Origin: a virus
Length of the DNA: 51,506 nucleotides
Virus genome (UHGV): UHGV-0335272
Strand: one strand, 5' to 3'
The position numbers were made by a program, and so were the translations under genes. How positions within the stretch are numbered: position 1 is the stretch's first letter; each line of letters starts with the position of its first letter. Shown piece after piece: positions 5,412 to 47,717 of this stretch. The notes beneath the pieces are model-generated. The model was not told the origin of the DNA, made no database searches, and worked only from the letters and a program-made list of their open reading frames with translations.

Positions 5412-7876
5412 CAGCTGTACCTCCTGCGCTGTTGCTGAGCCAGCAGACGCTCCAGCATTTTTTCCAGCTCGTGCACGCTCATATTCAGCGCACCGGTCAG
5501 CCCGGCTGGCGCTGCTGTCTCTTTGCCATTCAGGTAAAACTGAGGATTAAAGTCGACCTGAATACCACCAGACATTCCGCCACCGGATGCAGCTGCACCA
5601 CGGCCTGAATATCCCACAGCCATGATTTCTGGCGACGGGATACGGGGTACATCCGGTGTCATTTCTTCAGCCAGCCGCTGCCCGGCCAGCGCCGCAAGCG
5701 GAGTGGTGCGCTGCAGGCCGATGGCTGCTCCCTGTGCGATGTTGTCACCAAAGCCCATAAACACCCGGCTCGGTGAGTGAATGCCCAGTTTTTCTTTAAA
5801 CCAGCCGCCGACGCTGTCTCCCATGTCGGTGACGGTGGTTTTGAGCGAGTCCCATTTGTTTTTGATGCCGTTTATCAGCCCGTCGATAAGATGGCCACCG
5901 AAGTCAGTGAACTTCGCTGGCAGATCAACGCCGAGATATTTCAGCGCAGCCGCAAAGGCTTTGTAGAGCAGACCAACCGGCGACCAGTTCATCAGCAGCT
6001 TACCAATCCCCACGATACCGCCGTTAAACGCCGTTTTAATGTCTGCCCAGCGCTGTTTAAACCAGCCGCTGACCGCTCCCCAGTTGCGGTAAATAAGGTA
6101 AGCAGCCACAGCAACAGCGGTGATGACCAGACCGATAGGGTTCATCATCAGCGCCCGGCCAATCCAGAGAACTGCCCGTCCGACGAGCATAATGCCGCGA
6201 ACAAGACTGCCACCAAGTACACGCCCCAGCGTACCGGCCCCTCTGGCGACAGCGCTGAAGCCGGTCACTAACCAGCGGAGTTTGCCGCCTTCACCCAGTG
6301 CAAGGGTCAGACGAAGCCAGTTAGCTCGAAGCCTGACAACACTTCCCCATACGCTGGTAAATGGTGAGATAAGGAGATTCAGCCCCAGCTTGAGACCGAT
6401 GGTGGCCATCTTAAAGGCCAGTAATGCACCTACAACCTTAATAGTGCCGCTGACGAGCTGCGGGTTTGCCGCTATCCATTTGCCAACGCTGTTCATTAAG
6501 GGGATGAACGTTTCCCCCAACTGGATCAAAGCCGGGCGTAATGATTCTCCGATGCTAATGGCCGAGTCGTTAAAACCAATCTGGGTACTGCGCCAGCGTC
6601 CTTCGAGTGTGTCATTCTGTTTTGCTGCATCCTTGTCCAGGGTAGACATCGCAGAGGGAGTGTTCATTTCCTGTTTATTAGACTGGTACTTATCCCAGCC
6701 CTGGCGCATCGCCAGCAGATGGTTGACAGTCTGAATATCGGTGAACACTTCCGCCAGTCCAAAGGATTCCATCAACTTCTGCTGGCCTTCCTGATCGCCT
6801 CTTGATCCTGCAGCTTTCCATTGTTGTACGAATGCCTTGCCTTTACCGTCGATAAACCGGTTGGCAATCATCAGAGAGGCTTCATACTGAGAGAGTCCCT
6901 GGGCTACATAATTTTGCATTGACCCCTGATAGTCCACTCCGGCTTTGGCATATTTCTGAATGGTATCTCCGCGCCCCATCGCCGCCAGCCAGTTAGACAT
7001 ATTGGTGACTGCTTCCTCTGCAGAGCCGCTGCCTTTACCCACTTCCAGACTGGCGACAATCTGGGTTATGGCGTCTTTACCGTAAATACCACGGGCCGCG
7101 AAAGCTTTGGCCATACCGGGCAACGCTTTCGCCATATCCTTCAGTTCAAATGAGCCGAGCTTGGCCCCAGTTGCCGCAATCCCAAAAGCCTGCTCCAGCT
7201 CCTTCGCATCGGTAATTTTAAGCGCATCGCTGAAGGCATAGGTCATTTTGGCGAGGTCTGTCATATCCGCTTTGGTGGCTGTGGCTGCTTTGCCCAGCAT
7301 TCCGGCAAACTTTGCTGCCTGTTCCGGGTTCATACCATCAGCAACCAGTTGACCAACACCACCCAACAGAGACTCCTGCAGCTGGTTAACCCTGAGCGAT
7401 GCCTGACGAATAGCAGTACCGATTGCCTGCTCCTGACGTGCATCCAGATCGCCGGTCACGCTGATATCGCGAAGCTGGGACTCAAACGAGGCATATTGTT
7501 TGATTGAGGCCATAACTGGTGACCCCAGCGTTCTGCCTATGGCATAGGTTTCTGCCCCCTGCCCATAGAGCGCCATGCGGTTAGCTTTCTGCGCATCACT
7601 GGTGGCAGATACCGCCGACAGACGACGCTGCTGGCGCTCAACCTGTTCCATTGTTCGACCAACCCGCAACAGAGCATTGTTCAGGTTCTGCATGGAAGAT
7701 GTACCGAGGTGACCATAGCGGGCAATTTTCTGAGTTAAATTATCTTGCCGCTCCTGCAGACGGCGTGATGTATCGCCAAGGGAGTCGAGGGCGCGTCGGG
7801 TACCGCTGACGGCAGAACGGAAGCTGCTTCCGACAATCCCGCCAATAATGACGCCAACTGAAAATTCACTGGCCAC
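5411..7876 (-). CDS. Tail tape measure protein
   Basis: 821-aa ORF, A/G/L-rich with predicted coiled coil and hydrophobic C-terminal segments, downstream of tail chaperone. Confidence 0.85.
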   Translation of the reverse strand: MASEFSVGVIIGGIVGSSFRSAVSGTRRALDSLGDTSRRLQERQDNLTQKIARYGHLGTSSMQNLNNALLRVGRTMEQVERQQRRLSAVSATSDAQKANRMALYGQGAETYAIGRTLGSPVMASIKQYASFESQLRDISVTGDLDARQEQAIGTAIRQASLRVNQLQESLLGGVGQLVADGMNPEQAAKFAGMLGKAATATKADMTDLAKMTYAFSDALKITDAKELEQAFGIAATGAKLGSFELKDMAKALPGMAKAFAARGIYGKDAITQIVASLEVGKGSGSAEEAVTNMSNWLAAMGRGDTIQKYAKAGVDYQGSMQNYVAQGLSQYEASLMIANRFIDGKGKAFVQQWKAAGSRGDQEGQQKLMESFGLAEVFTDIQTVNHLLAMRQGWDKYQSNKQEMNTPSAMSTLDKDAAKQNDTLEGRWRSTQIGFNDSAISIGESLRPALIQLGETFIPLMNSVGKWIAANPQLVSGTIKVVGALLAFKMATIGLKLGLNLLISPFTSVWGSVVRLRANWLRLTLALGEGGKLRWLVTGFSAVARGAGTLGRVLGGSLVRGIMLVGRAVLWIGRALMMNPIGLVITAVAVAAYLIYRNWGAVSGWFKQRWADIKTAFNGGIVGIGKLLMNWSPVGLLYKAFAAALKYLGVDLPAKFTDFGGHLIDGLINGIKNKWDSLKTTVTDMGDSVGGWFKEKLGIHSPSRVFMGFGDNIAQGAAIGLQRTTPLAALAGQRLAEEMTPDVPRIPSPEIMAVGYSGRGAAASGGGMSGGIQVDFNPQFYLNGKETAAPAGLTGALNMSVHELEKMLERLLAQQQRRRYS

Positions 7877-45207: not shown

Positions 45208-45882
45208 ATGGAAACCGTATTGGATGCACTGAAAGCCATGAAAAAAGCAACATATCGCGAGGTTGCTGCCCGTCTGGATATCGAGCCCATTGAAGCGCTG
45301 AACATGCTGCGCGAGCAGAAAGAACAAGGGTTATGTGATTTTTACGATGGCGCATGGTCAATCGGTACAGCTAAAGAGCAGGCCAGGCAGCCGATCAAAC
45401 CTCAGGCAGCGGAGCCAGCGAATCAGGCTCCGCGCCTGAAAGGTGATGAACCAGCACCGGTTGATGTTGTGGCCATCCGCCAGTTGCTTGGAAAGAGCGG
45501 CTCTATGACCACCGCTGCGCTGGCTGCAGCTGTAAATCGTAATGCCCGCGGCATGGTCTCTGTAATGCTGTCTTTTGAGCGGCAGGGCGTGGTTATCAAA
45601 AACGGCGAGGGGAAGGGCGTGACATGGTCTCTGCCTGGAGCTGGTGAGGCCGCAGGCGTTACAGCCGAAGCTGCACAGCCAGAAAAAACAACTGCAGAAA
45701 TTATTGAGACCATCCCGGCATTCGCCTCTCGCCCTGATGACCTGATTATTCCGTCATCCCGTTATATCTCCGGTGAAATCCGCCGGACAAAAGCGAAGCT
45801 GTCAAACCTGCAGCGTCTTCAGGGCGCCGTTCGGGAGCTACGCCGCCATAAGCATCTGCTGGAGGGGCTGGGGAATGACTAA
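45208..45882 (+). CDS. Hypothetical protein
   Basis: ORF trimmed to METVLDALKAMKK... Confidence 0.45.
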   Translation: METVLDALKAMKKATYREVAARLDIEPIEALNMLREQKEQGLCDFYDGAWSIGTAKEQARQPIKPQAAEPANQAPRLKGDEPAPVDVVAIRQLLGKSGSMTTAALAAAVNRNARGMVSVMLSFERQGVVIKNGEGKGVTWSLPGAGEAAGVTAEAAQPEKTTAEIIETIPAFASRPDDLIIPSSRYISGEIRRTKAKLSNLQRLQGAVRELRRHKHLLEGLGND

Positions 45883-46105
45883 TTTACCGAAATGCCCTCA
45901 ATGCGGCATGGCCCCTTCACTGAGGGTTCGCAGCCGGGGAATGAACTGGGGTTCAGCAGAGGTCCGCTGTTCGAACGGTTGCCCTGGCATCCGAGCGGGA
46001 TTTTCGTTCCCGCCTGATGGTGAGGCAGCGGCCCGGCAGTTGCTTCAGGAAAAATGGAAAGAGCTTGTGGGAGGAATCAACGATGCCACGACCAAAAACT
46101 CATGA
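45875..46105 (+). CDS. Small zinc-ribbon protein (Lar-like restriction alleviation candidate)
   Basis: MTNLPKCPQCGMAPS...CSNGC cysteine pairs; overlaps neighbours. Confidence 0.35.
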   Translation: MTNLPKCPQCGMAPSLRVRSRGMNWGSAEVRCSNGCPGIRAGFSFPPDGEAAARQLLQEKWKELVGGINDATTKNS

Positions 46106-46349
46106 AGAGCGCACGGTGATGATTAACCGGATTATCGAACTGGTGAAAGAGCAGGGCCGTATCACGACGAAGGACGTCGTCGCGATGTTTAACCTGCACC
46201 GAACCACGGCAGAGAAGTACATCCGGATTGCCGTGCAACGTGGAGAGCTTATCCGTTACGGTCGCTGCGGTATTTTCCGTGACCAACGTGCAATTATCGA
46301 CTTTGACCTTAGCCGCTTTTCACAGCATAGAGTGGGTATGCAACCTTAA
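46083..46349 (+). CDS. Hypothetical HTH-like protein
   Basis: ORF trimmed to MPRPKTHEERTVMINRIIELVKEQGRITTKDV... Confidence 0.4.
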   Translation: MPRPKTHEERTVMINRIIELVKEQGRITTKDVVAMFNLHRTTAEKYIRIAVQRGELIRYGRCGIFRDQRAIIDFDLSRFSQHRVGMQP

Positions 46350-46656
46350 GTAAGACTTTCACCGCAAAAGGGCACATATCATTCTTAATTCAATGAAAGC
46401 GCGAACCCAATGGATGATTATCCAGGTCGATATGAACAGGCAACAACCTCTGGCTGGATAACTCCTGGTAGAGCTAGAATGACGATGCATTTATCACTGC
46501 TGTTTAATACAGATTAAAACAATGATGCTAAAATCTTGGTCTACATCAAAGATCTGTGTAACTGACTGATATTATTGAGTTGGTGTGATTTTGTTGTGGC
46601 TTATGACAAAATTTGATTGATCTTTTTTGTGGTTGTGACTAGAGGTCTTGTCAATT

Positions 46657-46697
46657 GGATTCATCGATCGATGAAAAAAGAATTGATCGATGAATCC
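46657..46697. promoter_or_regulatory. 13-bp perfect inverted repeat with GATC sites overlapping a candidate promoter
   Basis: GGATTCATCGATC - 15 bp - GATCGATGAATCC; TTGATC then 17 bp then TAAACT downstream; TTGTGGNTNTGAC direct repeats upstream. Confidence 0.45.
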
Positions 46698-46741
46698 TTT
46701 GATTCTAAACTAACAGTATTGAAGTAATCAGAGATTCAGTC

Positions 46742-47263
46742 ATGGCTAACAATTATTCAACTCAAGCTTTCTTCGATTTCCTGTACGAACTGCCTTCATT
46801 GGGACTCATCAATGAAGCAACTGCACGTAACCTGAAGAATTCAGCGTTGCTATTGCTCTCTGTTACCAAAATTCATAGTGATGATGATGTACGAGATCTA
46901 GACGTTGAAGACTTGATCGAGAAGTATATTGCGACCCAGTCCACGAAGCCTGGTGAATCTTCCATTCAAAGCTATCAAAGCCGATTTAAAAGCGCCGTTA
47001 ACAAGTTCGAGGAGTATGTGCGAGTGGGTACTATTGTAAACCAGTCAGATACTGACGGAAGCCAAGACGGATTTGATACTGCGGATCAGAATGCGGAGAA
47101 GATTAAACTGGGCAAGAGAGAGAAGGTGCAAGCCTTCAATTTGCCGATTGTAGTTCGCCCGGAGACAGGAACGATGATTACTGTCCAAGGCTTACCAACT
47201 GATCTCACTGCGGAAGATGCTGAGCGTATTCTTTCGGTATTAAAAGCGTATGTGCGTTCATGA
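46742..47263 (+). CDS. Hypothetical protein, AT-rich gene with own promoter and operator
   Basis: 173-aa ORF, clearly lower GC than flanking genes, preceded by a 390-bp AT-rich noncoding region. Confidence 0.55.
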   Translation: MANNYSTQAFFDFLYELPSLGLINEATARNLKNSALLLLSVTKIHSDDDVRDLDVEDLIEKYIATQSTKPGESSIQSYQSRFKSAVNKFEEYVRVGTIVNQSDTDGSQDGFDTADQNAEKIKLGKREKVQAFNLPIVVRPETGTMITVQGLPTDLTAEDAERILSVLKAYVRS

Positions 47264-47415
47264 AAAGAATTTGGGCCCAGCCTTTGGAGAGGAAGGGCCC
47301 GGATTGGGGATGTTGGAGCACCCGCAATCAGTACTGCGTACACAACAGTACAGTAGCGGATCCCCATATTTTAATCAAGTTTTAGGGAGGTGCTCCCCTG
47401 AGGCGAGGTTTATGT

Positions 47416-47589
47416 ATGGCTTTAAAAGACATCGCTACCAAACCGTTACCAGCCGGTTTTCGCTGGGTAAAATGCCGTTTCCGTAAAGCTCGTGCAAAGG
47501 CAGGGACTCCTGATTCTGAACGTAAGATTCTTGATGCTCATGCCTATGGTTACAAATGCTGGTCCTTTCCAGTGCGCACTAAGCACTAA
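47416..47589 (+). CDS. Possible small basic protein (57 aa)
   Basis: Manually found ORF MALKDIATKPLPAGFRWVKCRFRK...; GAGG upstream; ends 5 nt before terminator. Confidence 0.25.
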   Translation: MALKDIATKPLPAGFRWVKCRFRKARAKAGTPDSERKILDAHAYGYKCWSFPVRTKH

Positions 47590-47593
47590 GTTT

Positions 47594-47617
47594 TAAACCC
47601 GCTTCGGCGGGTTTTTT
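47594..47617 (+). terminator. Rho-independent terminator
   Basis: AAACCCGC-TTCG-GCGGGTTTTTTT. Confidence 0.65.
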
Positions 47618-47687
47618 TATGCCTAATGCCAAATATCCTTTAACATTTCGTGCTCTTAATCCATTGATCATTTTTCTGTATGGCGTC

Positions 47688-47703
47688 ACTGTATAAATAT
47701 ACA
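47688..47703. promoter_or_regulatory. LexA (SOS) box upstream of UmuD'-like gene
   Basis: CTGTATAAATATACAG matches CTGT-N8-ACAG; about 15 bp upstream of the gene. Confidence 0.55.
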
Positions 47704-47717
47704 GTTAATCATCAGGG

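Follow-up and report, generated by a model that had tools for sequence, protein, structure and literature searches.

What does a prophage gain from an AT-rich, noncoding gap that carries a palindrome and opens onto a gene of 173 codons? The question is raised by positions 46350–47263 of the virus genome UHGV-0335272, whose 51,506 nucleotides (nt) were analysed as a whole and are called the window here. The window is a lambdoid-type enterobacterial prophage. A reading made from the sequence alone (the sequence-only reading) had described the locus as a single horizontally acquired cargo gene behind its own controlled promoter. Mobility and the promoter of its own stood up to analysis; the single gene gave way to a module of three parts, namely the 173-residue protein (A), a structured RNA and a micro-ORF (open reading frame; B). 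We give about even chances to the reading that the locus forms the 5′ portion of a prophage accessory cassette, autonomous and horizontally mobile, that serves the lysogen, with an operator lying over an upstream (UP)-like element and the −35 hexamer, and with the RNA gating B.

The limits of the unit were taken from its relatives. In blastn comparisons, DNA homology with most of them starts at 46658, the first homologous base lying on the left arm of the palindrome, and stops at 47616–47620, the end of a terminator. For the relatives L014–L018, the left limit is 46589–46612. As the limits fall on the dyad and the terminator, we take the mobile block to consist of the dyad with its promoter, A, the spacer, B and the terminator (approximately 46657–47620, about 0.96 kb), and the AT-rich upstream DNA to lie mostly outside it. 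For about 300 bp of that DNA (46350–46656), there was no DNA match in most relatives. The unit does not end with gene A at 47263, as had been proposed, and continues to about 47620 through the RNA, B and the terminator. The features are collected in Table 1.

Table 1. Features of the cassette and of the DNA just upstream, in window coordinates. The three types of B are given by motif and length.
Feature	Position	Strand	Basis or remark
AT-rich spacer upstream of cassette	46350–46656		GC 0.33–0.44; holds both imperfect direct repeats
Dyad (41 bp), putative operator	46657–46697		Arms 46657–46672 / 46682–46697
A-tract AAAAAAGAA	46674–46682	+	Between dyad arms, upstream of −35
Sigma-70-type promoter	46683–46711	+	−35 TTGATC 46683–46688; 17-nt spacer; −10 TAAACT 46706–46711
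Gene A (173 aa)	46742–47263	+	Three-part AlphaFold2 model
Structured RNA (~150 nt)	47264–47415	+	Covariation, pseudoknot, fold z-score
RNA helix P1	47269–47283/47290–47304	+	Hairpin just 3′ of the A stop codon
RNA helix P2	47305–47311/47360–47366	+	Long-range helix with P3
RNA helix P3	47322–47325/47356–47359	+	Long-range helix with P2
RNA helix P4	47331–47336/47346–47351	+	Hairpin
RNA helix P6	47382–47387/47396–47401	+	Hairpin
RNA pseudoknot	47316–47321 (GAGCAC) with 47390–47395 (GTGCTC)	+	P2/P3 internal loop to P6 loop
Putative Shine–Dalgarno sequence of B, GAGG	47405–47408	+	4 nt downstream of the P6 3′ arm; read from sequence
Micro-ORF B (57 aa), basic, two Cys, phrog_33859	47416–47589	+	tblastn; codon-position substitutions
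Intrinsic terminator	47595–47621	+	8-bp GC-rich stem, T-run; closes the cassette
B type B1			...GYRW..CR[FY]R...LDA..YGY.[AC]W.F.V; 43–59 aa; window type
B type B2			MATAICNKCGNSCDVIFRPY...CGC; weak zinc-ribbon/treble-clef matches; 47 aa
B type B3			In VT2-Sakai, Oslo and L068; 40–44 aa

The block begins with the dyad. The 13-bp inverted repeat read from the sequence is there and proved slightly larger: its perfect 13-nt arms (GGATTCATCGATC at 46657–46669 and the exact reverse complement at 46685–46697) extend to arms of 16 nt that are complementary at 15 of 16 positions (94%) and stand 9 nt apart. No second copy of the exact 13-mer arm exists anywhere in the 51.5-kb window. Each arm contains a core box, CGATCG (46665–46670) or TGATCG (46684–46689). 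The promoter and its overlap with the dyad at the −35 element, both proposed earlier, are conserved in relatives. All 16 related promoters have TTGATC without change, and in 12 of them TA[ACG]ACT follows after a 17-nt spacer; we infer a transcription start at about 46718. An A-rich segment of 8–9 nt lies just upstream of the −35 element in 10 of the 16, and the others have AGAATTTT, AGAAGGTT or TCTTTTTG. The proximal UP-element subsite has the consensus AAAAAARNR; judged by that consensus, the A-tract of the window is possibly such a subsite.

Across the 16 promoters, the dyad is kept at 10–15 of its 16 positions. The invariant parts are the two cores and the outer GATT/AA.C, and both boxes recur at other spacings in the Erwinia and Pantoea-type clades, where A is only 35–41% identical. 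The expectation that homologous loci would keep the palindrome failed beyond this range: neither the Stx-phage clade nor the distant homologues have it. In these loci, the equivalent site relative to the promoter is occupied by other dyads. The TTGCAT-17 nt-TAAACT promoter of the Stx clade is abutted by another palindrome, CAAGACTtgAGTCTTG; in L076, GACGCG-N9-CGCGTC stands next to TTGACA; and the promoter-like sequence of L079 is preceded by a dyad of its own. That a dyad recurs beside or over the promoter in the distant cassettes examined, while its sequence varies, suggests that the cassette encodes the binder. The dyad resembles autoregulated operators in overlapping core promoter elements and in being conserved in relatives.

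The 173-aa ORF is a genuine gene with many homologues, and A matches phrog_2602 (function unknown) along its entire length (E 3e-75). At 50% identity, the family falls into 533 clusters, almost all of them of 156–206 aa and matching over both domains. In the AlphaFold2 model, residues 1–95 form a four-helix domain (predicted local distance difference test score, pLDDT, about 90), residues 97–128 are a disordered acidic linker, and residues 131–170 form a beta-beta-alpha domain with the motif LP.DLT..EAERI. The modelled N-terminal domain has the integrase core-binding (SAM-like) fold, with likenesses to the core-binding domain of lambda Int (2oxo), to 3nrw, to XerA and to IntI4. The identity to these structures is 7–13%. 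At least four distant members of the family give sub-threshold matches to Pfam Phage_int_SAM. The catalytic domain of tyrosine recombinases (R-H-R-Y) is absent from A, which has no Pfam Phage_integrase match and ends at residue 173 in the 40-aa beta-beta-alpha domain. By its predicted fold, the N-terminal domain belongs to the core-binding class, but A is not a recombinase. It shares the four-helix domain with tyrosine recombinases and lacks their catalytic and arm-binding N-terminal domains; it is only 173 aa long, and its C-terminal domain is unrelated to theirs. The recombinase-derived repressors MrpR (SPbeta) and SroF (phi3T) keep the full, inactive recombinase body, whereas A does not.

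The earlier statement that A has no recognisable motif thus holds for sequence libraries but not for the fold of the N-terminal domain. We found no significant Pfam, NCBIfam or PADLOC family match for A and no solved relative in a sequence search of the Protein Data Bank (PDB). In PADLOC-DB 2.0, the window protein had no match, and its relatives had only scattered weak ones (E ≥ 0.003). The best-conserved part of A is the C-terminal motif PIPLR.G..V.I..LP.DLT..EAERI; nothing known matched the C-terminal domain, also when C-terminal domains alone were searched against Pfam. A Foldseek search of the model against BFVD and PDB gave no significant match. Its top PDB match (E 0.15, non-significant) was the bacterial COMMD-like protein 9q6a, which has a layout like that of A, a helical N-terminal domain and a small beta/alpha C-terminal domain that oligomerises. 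On the model, 9q6a is a possible lead for the C-terminal domain. The sequence-only reading had asked whether A might be a nin-region gene of known function. It is not: the only PHROGs that A and B match have no assigned function, and it is the neighbours, not A, that match DUF977/Ren-like, UmuD-like and Ref-like families.

Between A and B, the transcript is predicted to fold into a pseudoknotted RNA. We aligned 22 distinct spacers. RNAalifold returned P1 and the P2/P3 helices, the latter with compensatory changes, and P4, P6 and the pseudoknot were added to this structure before pairing was tested. In the complete model, 90.1% of cells were paired, compared with 34–44% when the partners were slid by 1–3 columns. 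Both sides had changed in 24 of 42 pairs. For four of the five measures, the observed value was not reached in any of 500 shuffles. The pseudoknot is present in 11 lineages through nine different sequence pairs, among them GAGCAC/GTGCTC, GGTTACC/GGTAACC, GGTCTC/GAGACC, GGGAAAC/GTTTCCC and GGCAAGC/GCTTGCC, and in all lineages its 3′ strand lies 20–26 nt before the ATG of B. The window RNA itself folds better than 200 of 200 shuffles (z = −3.97). A covariance model built from the alignment found the RNA directly 3′ of the distant A homologues L005, L066, L076, L079 and L077. This model (R1) missed the Stx-clade RNA, in which P1, P2, P4, P6 and a pseudoknot (GGAGCCC/GGGCT) were seen by eye; of these, only the complementarity of the pseudoknot was checked by script, and it holds. 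At two Wenzhouxiangella loci, the RNA is missing, and a membrane-protein gene comes immediately after the A homologue.

We also considered other identities for the spacer. A protein-coding reading (ORF 47250–47486) was rejected because the spacer lengths differ by non-multiples of three and the substitutions in the helices are compensatory. The prophage small RNAs (sRNAs) AsxR and AgvB and the Pas sRNAs were set aside; they are sited near PR′/stx or near lysis and structural genes, not here. Rfam 15, which includes C4 and the known riboswitches and ribozymes, gave no match within 47264–47415 at E up to 10, and at the gathering threshold no family matched the RNA in the cassettes of 14 related loci. 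The covariation and folding give good support to the RNA as a candidate new family. Operon-embedded structured RNAs that control downstream translation or termination are found in immI of phages P1 and P7 (c4 RNA-icd-ant) and in the CI RNA of phage P4. The likeness to c4-icd-ant is one of layout only, a structured RNA in a phage operon immediately upstream of a very small ORF. The cassette RNA differs from the C4 and P4 RNAs in having no Rfam match and no complementary target repeats that we could see, and in being preceded by a protein gene.

In tblastn searches, B was found behind A in some 35 related loci as well as in the window, separated from it by a spacer of nearly constant length (147–161 nt). 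Substitutions relative to the window copy number 86, 47 and 323 at codon positions 1, 2 and 3, and B is therefore coding and under purifying selection. Within the window clade, B is 85–100% identical where A is 60–80%. A GC-rich stem-loop stands 3′ of every copy of B, with a T-run in all except the Vibrio locus. B has no Pfam or NCBIfam match. All three types of B (Table 1) occur within the Stx-like A clade, whose A proteins are 64–77% identical, and they are shuffled relative to the A phylogeny. Going by these sequences, the micro-ORF comes in three interchangeable types. In VT2-Sakai (L001, NC_000902.1, 5514–5830), downstream of orf22 (VT2-Sap23) come a structured spacer, a 40-aa ORF that is not annotated (MSTYNLNDQFDREVHVNAYERIRHGNLEHVCEHYRSRPHR) and then a terminator. 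The opposite-strand GeneMark coding sequence VT2-Sap22 (locus 5624–5785) overlaps this B3 ORF and is probably spurious.

A DNA search with 46350–47600 returned nothing from E. coli genomes (megablast) or phage records (blastn), and relatives were reached only by protein-level searches. Among complete E. coli genomes, 234 of 5,426 carry the Stx-clade variant (VT2-Sakai, an Stx2 phage, is one of its carriers), and RefSeq labels the E. coli copies 'hypothetical protein'. The layout of A, RNA and microprotein is kept down to about 25% identity in A. The family is nearly absent from plasmids (8 of 72,556 records). In VT2-Sakai, phage Oslo and a Proteus prophage, the A homologue immediately follows cI; elsewhere the homologous cassette lies between tail genes, beside a type I methylase and a WYL-domain gene, or beside intI in Vibrio. 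In the last case (Vibrio proteolyticus, L008, 1250–2487), the whole cassette is flanked on one side by an attC-like sequence (GCTAAC...GTTAGAGC, identified by eye) and on the other by an integron integrase gene next to rplT/infC. Possibly it is the first cassette of a chromosomal integron, oriented towards intI. A literature search found no description of gene A, the RNA or the micro-ORFs; one paper that mentions the cI–N interval of Stx2a phages discusses operators only.

These results can be assembled into a mechanism. In the lysogen, the cassette would probably be transcribed from its own promoter. The dyad would be the operator, and a dimeric protein sitting on both boxes would cover the UP-like A-tract and the −35 element and thereby repress transcription. 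This protein would most likely be A itself, making the cassette negatively autoregulated, and the Dam methylation state of the two GATC sites may alter protein binding or recognition of the −35 element. The transcript would run on through the pseudoknotted RNA, which ends by the Shine–Dalgarno sequence of B and may set or gate its translation. A and the RNA would be the constant regulatory or sensing part and B a swappable payload. During lytic growth, the cassette would also be read through from the early-right operon, because no terminator is predicted upstream of it.

The genomic position suggests what the cassette is for. Lysogen-expressed exclusion cassettes such as rexAB of lambda and stk of 933W occupy the cI–N interval of lambdoid phages. 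The module in VT2-Sakai, Oslo and Proteus is placed likewise: it lies downstream of cI and of a terminator, on the strand of cI, and precedes N. It has no sequence or fold relation to RexA or RexB and differs in having an RNA and a microprotein, and the window copy lies in the nin-type region. A promoter of its own, the rexAB slot by cI and the other moron sites together point to a function that serves the lysogen, most likely superinfection exclusion or defence and otherwise a toxin–antitoxin-like module. The same pattern of positions and the near-absence from plasmids fit exclusion or defence better than addiction of the plasmid type.

Several points weigh against this picture. As A has no PADLOC, Pfam or NCBIfam match and B no Pfam or NCBIfam match, exclusion or defence is argued from position. 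The window promoter has only 8 of 12 consensus positions, which is below the threshold of the scanner and is the reason that the scanner did not list it, and the start site is a deduced one; counted from it, the centre of the dyad lies near −41, a position that activators also use. A is acidic overall. Its putative recognition helices (TARNLKNS and Y.SRFKS) are nearly invariant between clades with differing dyads, and a search for residues changing in step with the three arm variants gave none. Constant helices and variable dyads fit a conserved target such as the RNA better than the dyad. For B, the AlphaFold2 model had a pLDDT of only 59, a confidence too low to support a fold search. A bolder version of the mechanism, which we consider doubtful, would make the module a new kind of RNA-containing prophage system: the recombinase-derived A and the pseudoknotted RNA would be a constant core, a ribonucleoprotein or a riboswitch-like sensor that licenses the translation of a swappable effector (B1, B2 or B3), for example on superinfection, with the promoter reading the Dam state.

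The GATC sites deserve separate consideration. The arms contain one each, as had been noted (46666–46669 and 46685–46688), and relatives keep them at fixed positions, −76 and −57 from the ATG of A. In 31 distinct promoter regions, we counted 56 GATC against 6.6 expected, a comparison in which relatedness is not corrected for. Dam-sensitive promoters are familiar from Mu mom, IS10 pIN, pap and agn43, and the cassette resembles them in having GATC inside its regulatory boxes and −35 hexamer at conserved positions. This conservation makes Dam sensitivity possible; the conserved core CGATCG/TGATCG could equally be a protein recognition sequence. One alternative, close to the sequence-only reading, is a methylation switch independent of A: the boxes would be read by Dam and a host factor (SeqA or another), or the −35 TTGATC would be methylated directly, so that the promoter would respond to replication or to the methylation state of incoming or replicating DNA and A would have another job. 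GATC is indeed the most conserved feature of the boxes, at fixed positions in the window, Erwinia and Pantoea-type clades; the Stx clade, which has no boxes, yet keeps one GATC just after the −10 element; and the conserved helices of A do not co-vary with the arms. The conserved unit, however, is the 6-mer CGATCG/TGATCG with flanking GATT/AATC symmetry, a palindrome wider than the GATC of the known Dam-sensitive promoters. GATC is lacking altogether in the distant cassettes L076 and L060, yet a dyad next to the promoter persists in L076, as it does in L079; and the two sites of the window are 19 bp apart, not a whole number of helical turns. We consider such a switch unlikely.

We place in the same low range a toxin–antitoxin-like addiction or abortive-infection pair in which A is antitoxin and autorepressor, B a small toxin, and the RNA keeps the translation of B low. 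The resemblance to type II and III operons is one of layout, a compact, self-promoted two-gene operon with a dyad at the promoter, a protein of DNA-binding fold first and a small conserved protein second. The shuffling of partners (B1, B2, B3) is typical of toxin–antitoxin modules, and the Vibrio cassette lies by intI after the attC-like sequence seen by eye, where self-promoted cassettes of this kind are common. Nevertheless, neither A nor B1, B2 or B3 matches a known toxin or antitoxin family, and the family is rare on plasmids. A conserved pseudoknot of 150 nt between the genes is foreign to type II systems. The antitoxin RNAs of type III (ToxIN-like) systems are tandem repeats encoded ahead of an endoribonuclease toxin; the RNA here is single-copy in the cassette, and Tandem Repeats Finder (TRF) run on 46300–47720 detected no repeat array, only a trivial 7-nt duplication (2.1 copies). 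B is also hydrophilic and only 40–59 aa long (57 aa in the window).

Somewhat less probable again is a ribonucleoprotein in which A binds the downstream RNA, instead of or besides the dyad, the A–RNA core being a sensor or a translational regulator of B and the dyad an ordinary operator for another factor. A and the RNA do form a constant pair across clades while B is swapped, and those polar and basic residues of A that are best conserved are invariant across clades that have the conserved RNA nucleotides (TAGYGGAT, TCAAG) in common but not the dyad. Core-binding domains are nevertheless known as DNA-binding modules, and we found no RNA-binding precedent here; the two Wenzhouxiangella loci have the A homologue without the RNA. 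A core-type recombination site at the cassette boundary, recognised by the recombinase-like domain of A and serving mobility rather than transcription, is very improbable: the left homology limit of most relatives falls exactly on the left arm, and inverted arms of 13–16 nt around a short spacer resemble recombinase core sites to go with the core-binding fold of A, but no second arm copy lies at the other end or elsewhere in the window, A is without a catalytic domain, and the right arm is the conserved −35 element, whose promoter function suffices to explain the conservation. At the level of families, every comparison made with known systems came out negative, and we rate the cassette as outside the known kinds of system.

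The AT-rich stretch upstream was borne out as a noncoding gap. At 46350–46741, it measures 392 bp, close to the 390 bp first given, and has no ORF of at least 60 aa; its sole ORF, of 43 aa, is on the minus strand. Its GC content falls to 0.325–0.395, compared with 0.53–0.61 in the flanking genes. The direct repeats had been given as identical. Two copies are real, TTGTGGCTTATGAC at 46594–46607 (14 nt) and TTGTGGTTGTGAC at 46627–46639 (13 nt), but there is a 1-nt indel between them, and copy 1, being one base longer, does not fit TTGTGGNTNTGAC. If a gap of 3–4 nt is allowed, two repeat matches are found against 0.22 expected. They are poorly conserved, anything like them being kept only in the closest relatives (L014–L018). 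Two short motifs containing GATC also lie upstream of the dyad: AGATCTGTGTAAC (46547–46560) recurs in L025–L030 at about −190 from the A start codon, and TTGATTGATCTTTT (46613–46625) recurs in L014–L018 at about −122.

In the window, the cassette is situated in the nin-type region, after the replication genes. The gene order on its 5′ side is a replication initiator (HTH_36), a DnaC-like loader, DUF1627, a 76-aa ORF and a DUF977/Ren-like protein; on its 3′ side, a UmuD-like ORF is followed by a Ref-like HNH nuclease and a cytosine methylase. In the related prophage L069, the order continues with RusA and then the antiterminator Q gene. A protein identical to A was found in 208 blocks of the assembly collection. 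All four of the places shown have it at the same position, between the DUF977 and UmuD-like genes, and in two of the four another two-gene insert directly follows the cassette; this interval is therefore a hotspot for accessory DNA. In the window's prophage lineage (L071/L072, 4028–4866), a two-gene insert directly 3′ of the cassette terminator encodes proteins of 119 and 158 aa, the latter with a weak Peptidase_M78 match.

Other observations concern the neighbouring genes. A perfect LexA-type SOS box (CTGTATAAATATACAG, 47689–47704), the sole CTGT-N8-ACAG in the window, lies about 15–25 nt upstream of the UmuD-like ORF (47718/47727–48050), which makes SOS control of this gene probable. At 45773–46105, a small ORF rich in Cys (...CPQCG...CSNGC...) overlaps the end of the DUF1627 gene and presumably resembles a restriction-alleviation protein of the Lar/RalR type. 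In L069, a genome with an identical A, the gene just after antiterminator Q (5812–6522) has a weak Pfam match to KwaB of the Kiwa defence system. In L016, about 0.9 kb downstream of the cassette, positions 5756–5873 match the IS1222-type ribosomal frameshift element (Rfam RF00383, 156.6 bits); an IS3-family element has therefore inserted near that cassette.

None of the three conserved components, the A family, the pseudoknotted RNA and the three microprotein types, has a described family. The module is common in enterobacterial prophages, and in VT2-Sakai it fills the classical slot for exclusion genes by cI. The micro-ORFs correct current annotations, as in VT2-Sakai, where the B3 ORF is unannotated beneath a GeneMark coding sequence on the opposite strand. 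A role in defence, exclusion or host control would make the cassette an RNA-based addition to the accessory repertoire of prophages and would give a role to a stand-alone integrase core-binding domain. If A and the RNA do form a sensing core, this would provide a function for the RNA and the micro-ORF, both unannotated, that lie next to cI in the Stx2 phage of E. coli O157:H7 Sakai.

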